Position numbers and translations under genes: made by a program
Shown: positions 25,533-34,881 of the stretch, piece after piece
Layout of the letters: every line of letters starts with the position of its first letter
How positions within the stretch are numbered: position 1 is the stretch's first letter
Source of the DNA: an uncultured Methanobacterium sp.
Lineage (GTDB): Archaea; Methanobacteriota; Methanobacteria; Methanobacteriales; Methanobacteriaceae
Reading direction: 5' to 3'
Assembly (NCBI RefSeq): GCF_963665055.2
Contig: NZ_CAXXRN010000003.1
Location: 10,326 to 74,325, forward strand
Length of the DNA stretch: 64,000 nucleotides
Notes under the pieces: generated by a model
Database searches by the model: none
What the model was told of the DNA's origin: nothing
What the model saw: the letters and a program-made list of their open reading frames with translations, nothing else

Positions 25533-25556
25533 CGATATGTTTATATGTCCATATCG
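25533..25556 (+). promoter_or_regulatory. 24-bp palindromic operator-like element enclosing the TATA box of ferredoxin-fwdF
   Basis: CGATATG-TTTATATGTC-CATATCG (7-bp inverted repeat); 20/24 identical to 34858..34881. Confidence 0.7.
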
Positions 25557-25595
25557 CATAATTATAGCATCAATCATTAAGTGAGGGTGATAATT

Positions 25596-25787
25596 ATGCC
25601 AGTAGTTATAGACGACGATAAATGTGGAAAGATCGAAAACTGCCCAGGAGAAGGCCTGTGCATCAAACTATGTGAACAGGGAGCCCTAGTAGAAGAAGAT
25701 GGCGAACTAGTTCTGTACCCGGATAAATGTGATGACTGTGACTTGTGTATCACCAACTGCCCTAACCAGGCTATATCCAAAGCTTAA
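25596..25787 (+). CDS. Small ferredoxin (one canonical and one atypical cluster motif)
   Basis: [12 protein letters not shown] canonical; first motif C-x5-C-x5-C-x3-C. ATG 25596 with GAGGGTGA RBS. Confidence 0.88.
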
Positions 25788-25813
25788 ATCTTAAATATAG
25801 GGGAATGGTATTT

Positions 25814-26809
25814 ATGAGCGCGGTAGAAAGAAATGGGAACGACAAACGTTCTCTGGATTACATCAGTGACAAATGTGTGGGATGCGGTATATGCACCAGC
25901 ATCTGCCCCACAGAATCCTTAAGGCTGGGCCCAGTATTACCCATAGCCAGAGGACTGGTGAACATGGATTACGTGAATGTTAACAAGAACAGCTGTGTTT
26001 TATGCGGTTTATGCGCATCAGCCTGTCCTTTCGAAGCATTCGAGTTCAAGATCAACGATGAAAACATCAAAGATCTGGAGGCCTATCCTCAATGGAACCA
26101 CTCGGCCTACATTGACAATGAAGAGTGTTTATATTGTAAGGCATGTGAAACTGCTTGCCCTCAGGATGCCATAACCATAAAACGTGAACTACCTAAACGT
26201 TCCAACCTGGTTGTAGGTGAAATCGATATAAACAAGGACGAATGTATTTACTGTGGTATATGTGAAGAGATGTGCCCACCACAGGCCATAACTATGACTG
26301 TCAAGGAACAGATGGAACGCGACATCGAAGTGGATGAAGATAAATGTGTTTACTGTCTGGTGTGTAAACGTGCCTGCCCAGTTGATGCTATAAAAGCAGC
26401 ATGTACTTCCTGTTCATATGGAGAGTATGAAATAAACCCAGAAGATGCTAAAATCAAGGGAAGGGCCATTCTGGAGGAAGACAAATGTGTTAACTGCGGC
26501 TGGTGCCAGGAAATCTGTCCGGTTGATGCTGCTAAAGTCATCAAACCATTTGAAGGCGAAATTTCCGTTAACATCGAAGAATGTAAAGGTGAATCCTGCC
26601 ACGCATGTGTGGACGTCTGCCCCTGTAATGCAGCAAGTATTGTGGATGATAAATCATCCATTGAAGAGAAATTCTGCATTCTCTGCGGTGCCTGCAGTAA
26701 TGTGTGCCCACAAAACTGCATAACCATTAAACGGGACAAGATGAACCTGGAAAACATCCGTTCCAAATCCTGGCAGAACAAGCTATCCGGATTAATTGAA
26801 GGGAAATAA
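25814..26809 (+). CDS. fwdF: Polyferredoxin of the formylmethanofuran dehydrogenase subunit F (FwdF/FmdF) family
   Basis: Eight CxxCxxCxxxC-type motifs; N-terminal VERNG...R-L...CVGCGIC...GP...IARG pattern typical of FwdF; no other fwd subunits adjacent. Confidence 0.8.
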
Positions 26810-33329: not shown

Positions 33330-33350
33330 AGATCTGAATCTACAAATATA

Positions 33351-34616
33351 TTATAAATAATGTTTTTTAAGCTGAGGCAAACTAATCATTATTATTAACC
33401 CATTAGCGATGATCCAGGCATAACCCACACCGATTAAACCAAACAATGGGATCAAAACGTAAGTGAAGATCAAAGTGAATAGTCCAATAGTAACATAAAT
33501 AAAAATTACATAATTTGTTTTCTTTAAGACTCGATTTACTGTGGCGTAAAGTGTGTTAATATAGTAAATGAAGTTTCCTATTACAAATAATATTAAAATA
33601 TCATAGGAATTTGCAGCATACTCCTGCCCGAATATAAATAAAATAAATTTCCCAAACAGTAAAAGAAAAATAGAAGCCACAGACAACGATACGAAAATTA
33701 ATATTGCTGCTTTTTTAGTATTTTTTCTCAATTCTACCATACTTTGAGTGTTTTCAGCTATTAAAGAAATGTAAATCACGTAAGGAATTGCCAATAGTAA
33801 CATTGAGATTTGCCATGCAATAAAGAAATAGGCATTTTGATCTGCGCCCAAAATGTTTATAATCATCAATGGTAAAATGAAAGTGGGTAAATTTTCAAAA
33901 ATTCTTGCAATATAATTTCCGGAAGAAAAACGGAAAATATGTATTATAACGTCTTTTTTTACTGTTGGAATAAATCTGTACGAAACTAATTTTGAAGTTA
34001 ACAAAATGCCAATTACAAATGCAATAATAAATACTATTCCATAAGAAAAAACAATTCCAAAAATTCCAAACGGAATTAACAATACGAGAAATAGAAGTCG
34101 TAGAGGAATTACCATATTTTGCATTAATGAATATTCACCTTTTTTTAATCCAGCAAAGACACCAAAGCTTTGCAAGGTAATCAAAGGAGAAATAGTGGTT
34201 ACTATAACAAAAAGTACCATTACTAATGTATTTTCACGTAAAACAATTAAAGAAGGGCTCCAAATATTAATTCCCAATAAAAAAATCAAAGTTAAAACCA
34301 GTGCAAAAACGAGTGAGACAGTAAGACAGGAATTGATAAGTTCTTCCTGTTCTTTTAGTTCAGGTATATACTTTACAAGTGCTATATCAAATCCTAAAAA
34401 TGATAACATGCTAATTAAACCTATTATGGAAATTATTGCAGTAGCTAAACCTAGATCATTAGCAGAATAAAATCTTGCACCTATGACCCAGAAAATAAAT
34501 CCAGAACCTACTACAATAATATAGGTTACAAAGAGGTAATATGAATCTTTAAAAATTGGATCTTGGACATGATTGTATAGATTTTTAATATAATCCTTTA
34601 AAATATTTCTTCTCAT
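33351..34616 (-). CDS. Polysaccharide/oligosaccharide flippase (Wzx/MOP superfamily)
   Basis: GFIFWVIGARFYS...GL, GFDIALVKYIP, GADQNAYFFIAW, GLIGVGYAW; about 12 TM. Confidence 0.88.
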   Translation of the reverse strand: MRRNILKDYIKNLYNHVQDPIFKDSYYLFVTYIIVVGSGFIFWVIGARFYSANDLGLATAIISIIGLISMLSFLGFDIALVKYIPELKEQEELINSCLTVSLVFALVLTLIFLLGINIWSPSLIVLRENTLVMVLFVIVTTISPLITLQSFGVFAGLKKGEYSLMQNMVIPLRLLFLVLLIPFGIFGIVFSYGIVFIIAFVIGILLTSKLVSYRFIPTVKKDVIIHIFRFSSGNYIARIFENLPTFILPLMIINILGADQNAYFFIAWQISMLLLAIPYVIYISLIAENTQSMVELRKNTKKAAILIFVSLSVASIFLLLFGKFILFIFGQEYAANSYDILILFVIGNFIYYINTLYATVNRVLKKTNYVIFIYVTIGLFTLIFTYVLIPLFGLIGVGYAWIIANGLIIMISLPQLKKHYL

Positions 34617-34857
34617 TAAAAGTAATATTTAACAACTTAAATATTATATTTAACCCCTCCAAATTTTCTGCAATACATGTACTTCATTAAAGTGTCGTTT
34701 TTCTTTAAAAAATATATATTAAGTAGTTTTCCCATGAAAACAAGAATTATACAAGAATTAACTATAATACCAACTCAAAAACAGTTAGATGCTCATCAGC
34801 TGATTTTATTTCAGTTCCTTAAATCAAATATAAAACCTTTACGCCTACCAGCTAAGA

Positions 34858-34881
34858 CGACATGTTTATATATACCTATCG
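34858..34881 (+). promoter_or_regulatory. 24-bp operator-like element enclosing the TATA box of fmdE
   Basis: CGACATGTTTATATATACCTATCG; 20/24 identical to 25533..25556. Confidence 0.65.

Follow-up and report, generated by a model that had tools for sequence, protein, structure and literature searches.

Two 24-bp palindromes in a 64,000-nucleotide stretch of an uncultured Methanobacterium sp. (contig NZ_CAXXRN010000003.1, positions 10,326 to 74,325; hereafter the window, in whose numbering coordinates are given) overlap the predicted core promoters of a ferredoxin-fwdF gene pair and of an fmdE-like gene. A regulon survey of relatives (some 170 genomes, entered via the FmdE locus) suggests that both are operators for molybdenum (Mo) and tungsten (W) homeostasis in the Methanobacteriaceae, at which an oxyanion-loaded dimer of a ModE-family protein would occlude the transcription factor B (TFB) recognition element (BRE) and the TATA box. 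We assign this reading a probability of roughly 0.77. The first-pass annotation of the window had proposed a candidate Mo/W regulon from these two elements, and the presence of the same box before genes for WtpA/WtpC, ModA, a TupA-like protein, MOT1 and XdhC in related genomes supports that proposal.

The first palindrome (box 1, CGATATGTTTATATGTCCATATCG, 25533..25556, plus strand) is the predicted ModE-type operator of the ferredoxin-fwdF promoter, with perfect 7-bp inverted arms (CGATATG/CATATCG) and a 10-bp spacer. The second (box 2, CGACATGTTTATATATACCTATCG, 34858..34881, plus strand), predicted operator of the fmdE-like promoter, carries two arm mismatches (CGAcATG/CcTATCG) around TTTATATA. 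As first described, they share 20 of 24 positions and lie about 9.3 kb (9325 bp) apart. The distance from the end of the box to the start codon is 39 nt for box 1 (ATG of the ferredoxin gene, 25596) and 35 nt for box 2 (GTG of the FmdE-family gene, 34917). Both the sequence and the promoter alignment discussed below place a probable TATA box (TTTATATG, 25540..25547, plus strand) within the spacer of box 1; with the usual archaeal promoter geometry, transcription of fer-fwdF would be expected to start at about 25567-25572, in a conserved stretch resembling the initiator ACATCAAAAT.

The two boxes stand out clearly from their surroundings. A degenerate search of the window for the 24-mer, allowing up to 3 mismatches, returned only these two matches, with 0.00 expected from 100 dinucleotide shuffles, and a position weight matrix (PWM) built from related sites scored them at 36.9 and 34.1, respectively, with a maximum of 14.4 over a background of 20 shuffles. 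The window contains 32 copies of TTTATAT, of which just two, those of box 1 and box 2, are bounded by CGA and TCG at both box ends; the CG dinucleotide is about 2-fold depleted in the window. The 120 bases flanking the two boxes are 28% identical, which is the random level, and the boxes are therefore not part of a duplicated segment or cassette.

Across relatives, the element conforms to the consensus CGATATG-N10-CATATCG, or CGATATGTTTATATAT(N)CATATCG, with 7-bp inverted arms and TTTATATA in the spacer; the latter constitutes a canonical archaeal TATA box, and the whole can also be read as GATATGT-N8-NCATATC. We scanned the closest genome, Methanobacterium sp. UBA8 (G001, reached through an FmdE protein with 94% identity), and 23 Methanobacterium genomes with the pattern CGANATGTTTATATNNNNNTATCG at up to 2 mismatches, and 151 Methanobacteriaceae genomes with the full-consensus pattern at the same tolerance, using the reversed pattern as control in each scan. 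G001 yielded 8 sites (0 in the control), six of them on one 18-kb contig. At the genus level, 21 of the 23 genomes carried sites, with more than 100 real matches against 5 in the control, while the family scan located the box in 104 of 151 genomes and the reversed control in none of the 151. Copies per genome range from 1 to 17, and in four genomes 13-17 sites are packed in one island of 45-60 kb. A search with the arms alone mostly recovered sites with a TATA-like spacer, again clustered. The concern that the motif might occur at many unrelated promoters was not borne out, since complete genomes have hardly any copies outside Mo/W loci; on the complete chromosome of G017, for instance, 16 of 17 matches fall within a single 43-kb island. 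The box is thus no generic promoter, but a conserved element of a Mo/W gene set that is confined to Mo/W-related promoters. A literature search found no description of this element for the Methanobacteriales.

Two arm-only matches outside the islands were set aside from the regulon. One, in G016, is intragenic, and the other, with the sequence CGAGTTGTTAATATATCCATATCG (L052 2503-2526; G017 C1:665502-665525), lies between the gene for AglB/STT3 and a gene for an HI0933-like flavoprotein. The latter box-like site is also conserved in G007 and G010, outside any Mo/W locus.

The two-gene fer-fwdF unit is present in 9 genomes, and alignment of the nine orthologous promoters is informative on the nature of the element. 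Their upstream flanks are unalignable and the box is nearly invariant, followed by a conserved initiator-like stretch, a Shine-Dalgarno sequence (GGAGTGATCA), a start codon at fixed distance and the conserved protein start MPVVID. The right arm, CATATCG, is invariant in these promoters and lies downstream of the TATA box, ahead of the expected start site. The first-pass annotation had cautioned that the left half might partly be BRE and TATA, and had rested its case for an operator on the right half; conservation of the right arm where no basal element is needed answers that caveat and sustains the case. Orthologues of box 2 are found as CTACATGTTTATATGTACCTATCG at the fmdE promoter of G001 and as CGACATGTTTATATGTACTTATCG in G100.

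Targets and probable regulator in related genomes

The genes that follow the box in relatives give an indication of its function. In G017, boxed promoters precede a WtpA/B/C operon (WtpA, TIGR03730, 302 bits, above 243; WtpC, 617 bits, above 440), a ModA-type transporter (TIGR01256, 77 bits, above 62.5), an importer of the Peripla_BP_2-FecCD-ATP-binding cassette (ABC) type and an XdhC-family maturation factor for aldehyde oxidoreductase (AOR). The same genome has boxes before genes for a radical S-adenosylmethionine (SAM) protein, several SAM methyltransferases, an FmdE-like protein, a FwdF-like polyferredoxin, a DUF2162-ExbB-like-DUF2149-Peripla_BP_2 set and large secreted beta-propeller and beta-helix proteins. 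In G003 the box stands ahead of a Peripla_BP_2-FecCD-ABC-MFS_MOT1 operon encoding a molybdate carrier (L053 9395-13440) and of genes for a TupA-like protein, a permease and an ATPase-TOBE protein, and in G047 it stands ahead of wtpA. All these uptake-operon sites (G017, G003, G047) belong to relatives; the window itself has no such transporter. The wtpA and modA promoters share the geometry of the window boxes, with the TATA box in the spacer and equal spacing to the start codon. Where a genome has just one strong site, it precedes the fer-fwdF pair in most cases examined, which makes this pair the best-conserved target. The G003 operon combines a FecCD-type ('iron/B12') ABC importer with MFS_MOT1 behind one box, which suggests a Mo/W-related substrate for these Peripla_BP_2 systems.

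The search for a ModE-type winged helix-turn-helix (HTH) regulator, suggested as a check by the first-pass annotation, was also successful in relatives. With a hidden Markov model of the ModE N-domain (TIGR00637), a protein of about 230-245 residues was found in all 7 genomes searched first and in 133 of the 151 family genomes (233 residues in G001). These ModE-like proteins combine a ModE-type winged HTH, which aligns to that of Escherichia coli ModE (1B9M, E 1e-9), with a single C-terminal TOBE domain. Presence of the box and of the gene are strongly associated: 103 of the 133 genomes with a ModE-like gene carry the box, as opposed to 1 of the 18 without it, the remaining 17 lacking both (Fisher p = 3e-9, a value that ignores kinship). 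In at least 12 genomes the two are also physically linked, a ModE-like gene and a box being separated by no more than about 2 kb. G017 and G013 encode a further ModE paralogue, which is transcribed divergently from the boxed fwdF promoter and located beside TrmO and NrpR genes, the same neighbours as in the window. In G047 the entire system occupies a 5-kb locus with the order mop-(box)-fer-fwdF-modE-(weak box)-wtpA-(box)-fmdE.

The order mop-(box)-fer-fwdF is common to the window, G001, G047 and G100, and the last of these genomes, that of a very close relative, provides a plausible picture of how the window locus came about. In G100, mop-(box 1)-fer-fwdF is followed by a ModE paralogue gene of the HTH-only type (134 residues, no TOBE; L058 2939-3343, minus strand), which is divergent from (box 2)-fmdE, so that the boxes are just 2.3 kb apart; the free 69-residue Mop gene is 1.7 kb away. 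This split of regulator and sensor resembles an arrangement noted for Desulfovibrio (PMC545781). The window and G100 are similar as far as a point just beyond fwdF, and then again from about 30 bp ahead of box 2. Where G100 has about 1 kb with the HTH-only ModE gene (L058 2740-3740), the window has about 8 kb (26840-34800) of glycosylation and membrane genes with low GC content (0.31), and a tblastn search of the window detected no remnant of the HTH-only gene. The 9.3-kb separation of the boxes is hence secondary, given that the insert replaces the ModE segment of G100, and the two boxed promoters belong to one ancestral Mo/W locus. The window and G100 proteins are 77% identical for FmdE and about 98% identical for FwdF, a disparity that suggests a recombination boundary. 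The idea that the Mop protein of the window is a remnant of a ModE C-terminus was discarded, as it bears no similarity to the second ModE paralogue.

Comparison with known ModE and Tfx systems

A ModE box was reportedly predicted for Methanosarcina by Studholme and Pau in 2003. The ModE protein of M. acetivorans binds RTTATGT-N8-RCATAAY in electrophoretic mobility shift assays and represses anf and vnf, as determined by CRISPR interference, and the sites predicted or proven for it lie ahead of fmd, of the genes for two molybdate transporters and for 'Fe' ABC transporters, and of a radical-SAM gene (PMC12327845). That box and the one described here are both palindromes with 7-bp arms and an 8-bp inner spacer that is often A/T-rich and TATA-like; the left half-sites agree at 6 of 7 positions and the right ones at 5-6 of 7, box position 17 being variable. 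The half-site reads ATATGT here and TTATGT in Methanosarcina, one position per arm differing (A for T), and several Methanosarcina sites have a TATA-like spacer (TTTATTTAA) near the start codon, like the present box. The likeness extends to the regulator, with a winged HTH and a single Mop/TOBE domain in both groups, and to the regulated genes, as both regulons include mod/wtp transporters, Fmd-related genes, a FecCD-type 'Fe' ABC system and a radical-SAM gene. There are nonetheless clear differences. The present box is framed by an additional conserved CG at either outer end, its regulon shows no nitrogenase targets and has the ferredoxin/FwdF-like pair as its best-conserved target, and some Methanobacteriaceae, unlike Methanosarcina, possess an additional ModE paralogue or a ModE of the HTH-only type.

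The E. coli operator, with the consensus ATCGNTATATA-N6-TATATANCGAT quoted in PMC545781, shares with the present box a 24-bp frame running from CG to CG and CGNTAT at the outer ends. The N-domain of E. coli ModE is homologous to that of the proteins found here, and its operator likewise overlaps the core promoter of an uptake operon. In contrast, the inner half-site is TATATA in E. coli and TATGT here, where the central 6-8 bp are themselves the TATA box, and the promoter is served by bacterial sigma-70 in one case and by archaeal TATA-binding protein (TBP) and TFB in the other. The resemblance to a ModE box noted by the first-pass annotation consequently stands, with the correction that the nearest form is the Methanosarcina RTTATGT-N8-RCATAAY rather than the TATATA-N6-TATATA of E. 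coli. The placement of a ModE box over a core promoter is already known from bacteria and Methanosarcina.

A third point of comparison is the Tfx/fmdECB system of Methanothermobacter, in which fmdECB is induced in a Mo-dependent manner (Hochheimer et al. 1999, as reviewed in PMC3087415). It resembles the present case in the Mo/W-dependent control of a unit containing FmdE, also in the Methanobacteriales. The binding site of Tfx, however, lies downstream of the promoter and the tfx gene directly precedes fmdECB, and the fmdE gene of the window is monocistronic, with neither tfx upstream nor fmdC and fmdB downstream. A search for a Tfx homologue (TIGR00721) in 6 Methanobacterium genomes returned none, and Tfx was ruled out as the regulator on that account.

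Proposed mode of control, signal and alternative explanations

Taken as a whole, the evidence is consistent with a simple regulatory scheme, in which we infer ModE as the binding protein, repression as the mode of control and molybdate and/or tungstate as the effector. A dimer of the ModE-family regulator (winged HTH plus one TOBE/Mop domain) would bind both arms of the box when loaded with oxyanion and would then cover the BRE, the TATA box and the stretch to about -15, blocking assembly of TBP and TFB. The boxed operons would be off while Mo/W is sufficient, and the repressor would leave, turning the regulon on, when it becomes short. The regulon would encompass high-affinity uptake (wtpABC, modABC, tupABC-like, MOT1 and FecCD-type ABC systems), an XdhC-type cofactor-insertion factor, FmdE-like proteins and the ferredoxin/FwdF-like pair; the share of the window would be this pair and the FmdE-like gene.

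Methanobacteriaceae include gut and rumen methanogens and biomethanation strains, for which the W/Mo enzymes formylmethanofuran dehydrogenase and formate dehydrogenase make Mo/W growth-limiting. If the scheme holds, the family gains a defined cis-element for Mo/W homeostasis, and the box becomes a cheap genomic marker of the Mo/W-starvation regulon. Its interest lies in the family-wide definition of the box, in the TATA-in-spacer design, which would be a natural example of an archaeal repressor palindrome with the TATA box as spacer, and in the uncharacterised, conserved genes to which it points (FmdE-like, ferredoxin/FwdF-like pair, DUF2162/ExbB-like/DUF2149 and the FecCD plus MOT1 operon).

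Several observations weigh against this scheme. Every ModE-like match scores below the NCBIfam cut-off (74-98 against 98.5 bits), and 30 genomes with a ModE-like gene lack the box at the chosen stringency; many of the family genomes are, moreover, incomplete metagenome-assembled genomes, which weakens the co-occurrence test between box and ModE. The window itself holds no ModE-like gene detectable by tblastn, in agreement with the first-pass annotation. Some members of the regulon (surface proteins, methyltransferases and Peripla_BP_2 systems) are not obviously Mo/W genes, and there is no proven rationale for inducing a polyferredoxin and FmdE under Mo/W scarcity. Finally, purified single-Mop ModE of M. 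acetivorans bound no Mo, and Mo left its DNA affinity unchanged, so that its authors left the sensing route unsettled (PMC12327845).

The question of sensing bears directly on the role of the stand-alone Mop protein encoded next to box 1. The ModE-like proteins of relatives have a TOBE domain of their own, and sensing by a free Mop is therefore not required. Aligned to E. coli ModE (1B9M), the Methanobacterium protein retains in its TOBE domain positions S126, R128, T163, S166 and K183, which we take to be the molybdate ligands; should this be right, the regulator can sense the oxyanion by itself, and the free Mop is more probably a storage or buffer protein. A broader version of the scheme is conceivable, though we consider it rather doubtful. 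The box would mark a large Mo/W-starvation regulon that includes undescribed archaeal acquisition machinery, with boxed island genes whose products could synthesise and import a chelated ('molybdophore/tungstophore'-like) form of the metal, and the neighbouring free Mop may deliver the oxyanion signal where ModE is HTH-only, as in G100, or single-Mop. The island products considered for this role are the DUF2162/ExbB-like/DUF2149/Peripla_BP_2 set, the FecCD-type importer encoded in one operon with MOT1, secreted beta-propeller, CopC and Ig-like proteins, the SAM methyltransferases and the radical-SAM enzyme. The notion of Mop as a co-sensor is kept because the mop-(box)-fer-fwdF order is conserved and the ModE of G100 is HTH-only. 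Were it true, it would answer the question raised by the failure of Methanosarcina ModE to bind Mo in vitro.

Among the alternatives to repression by ModE, the most serious, which we still regard as unlikely, is that the box is a Mo/W-regulon operator read by another transcription factor and that the ModE-like genes are simply neighbours within the same regulon. The sub-threshold scores and the 30 ModE-bearing genomes without a box are compatible with this possibility, and the islands do hold several small unannotated proteins, such as those of 103-aa and 140-aa open reading frames (ORFs). On the other hand, the annotated island genes showed no further DNA-binding domain. The proven archaeal ModE box (PMC12327845) agrees with the present one in half-site sequence and spacing, and the joint absence of gene and box in 17 of 18 genomes, together with the tight linkage in at least 12, also argues for ModE.

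It is somewhat less likely still that ModE binds the box but acts as an activator at fer-fwdF and fmdE, so that these genes would be made when Mo/W is available. The wtpA and modA promoters, at which one would expect repression, have the same box geometry, and a dimer sitting across the TATA box leaves TBP no room. Archaeal activators, besides, normally bind upstream of the BRE. Activation does have precedents: E. coli ModE is a dual regulator, Mo induces fmdECB in Methanothermobacter (PMC3087415), and activation at the fmd site of Methanosarcina could not be excluded by the authors of that study (PMC12327845).

The nature of the signal admits a third alternative, namely that it is iron, cobalamin or general metal stress and that Mo/W transporters form only a subset of the regulon. 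An iron or siderophore-type regulon was in fact the first idea, stemming from the Peripla_BP_2, ExbB-like and Fe-S genes on contig C282 of G001, and many boxed operons do contain Peripla_BP_2/FecCD-type ABC systems, ExbB-like/DUF2162/DUF2149 genes, Fe-S-rich ferredoxins and surface proteins. It was dropped when the WtpA, ModA, TupA, MOT1 and XdhC targets and the linkage to ModE appeared. WtpABC, ModABC, TupA-like proteins, MOT1 and XdhC are specific to Mo/W, a FecCD system shares its operon with MOT1, the linked regulator has a TOBE oxyanion domain, and 'Fe' ABC transporters are also part of the Methanosarcina ModE regulon (PMC12327845); a signal other than Mo/W thus appears quite improbable. 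Last, despite the canonical TTTATATA at its centre and a left arm at the BRE position, the 24-mer is almost certainly not a mere core-promoter consensus or a duplicated cassette, for it has both arms at 2 of 32 window TTTATAT sites, unrelated flanks, an invariant right arm downstream of the TATA box and 1-17 copies per genome confined to Mo/W loci, with reversed controls at 0 (G001, family) or 5 against more than 100 (genus).

Features of the window and of the islands in relatives

Gene families of the window were assigned with Pfam and NCBIfam. That box 1 directly follows a mop gene, as the first-pass annotation indicated, proved correct: a stand-alone Mop/TOBE gene of the molbindin type (25163..25372, plus strand; 69 residues; PF03459, E 9e-15; TIGR00638, 73.8 bits for a cut-off of 55) ends 160 bp ahead of it. 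The gene forms a separate transcription unit, with an oligo-T stretch at its 3' side and no box of its own. The operon of box 1 begins with a gene for a 63-residue 2x[4Fe-4S] ferredoxin of the Fer4 families (25596..25787, plus strand), followed by that for a paralogue of the FwdF-type 8x[4Fe-4S] polyferredoxin (25805..26809, plus strand; NF042909, 463 bits for a cut-off of 375). Box 2 precedes a monocistronic gene for an FmdE-family protein with a C-terminal zinc ribbon (34917..35579, plus strand; PF02663, E 4e-34; weak zf-dskA_traR), downstream of which lies a convergent surface-protein gene. The initial description of these as formylmethanofuran-dehydrogenase-associated genes holds for the families, attested by NF042909 and PF02663, but not for membership in fwd or fmd operons. 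The fwdF gene is bicistronic with the ferredoxin gene and is followed by glycosyltransferase genes, outside a context of the fwdHFGDACB type, and both 'fwdF' and 'fmdE' of the window are stand-alone paralogues outside fwd/fmd operons. The FwdF protein fits the 'additional monocistronic 8[4Fe4S] polyferredoxin' of Methanothermobacter (PMC3087415).

A possible third, weak box (CGATATGTTTATATATGATCTTCA, 39849..39872, plus strand) has the left arm and the TATA box but a degenerate right arm, and scores 18.9 with the PWM against the shuffle maximum of 14.4. It is located 210 bp ahead of the gene for a 2191-residue surface protein (40082-46657), in a 680-bp gap that separates two divergent giant surface-protein genes and that also contains a second element, CGAAATGTATAT...TTCG, at 39660-39683. 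The weak box resembles the CGATATGTTTATATCGATCATTCG sites that G001 and G017 have in their islands ahead of genes for large secreted proteins, and degenerate boxes of this kind also precede paralogous secreted proteins in both genomes.

The islands themselves (L038-L040, G017 C1:2858700-2901800; L010, G001 C282), with 13-17 boxed promoters over 43-60 kb in some relatives, include DUF2162-ExbB-like-DUF2149-Peripla_BP_2 genes and secreted proteins of the PQQ-propeller, Big_5, CopC and NosD types, as well as several SAM methyltransferases, a radical-SAM gene and XdhC. They may constitute an uncharacterised acquisition system.

Directly beside the Mo/W locus of the window, the gene for the nitrogen repressor NrpR (HTH_12 plus two NRD domains) follows glnA (20868-24235), and the nrpR-trmO neighbourhood is common to the window, G017 and G100. 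Between the two boxes, three overlapping ORFs of 164, 166 and 131 residues in different frames (27641-28852) and two further ones of 86 and 157 residues, also in different frames (29068-29722), look like frameshift-disrupted genes for a glycosyltransferase and a methyltransferase.

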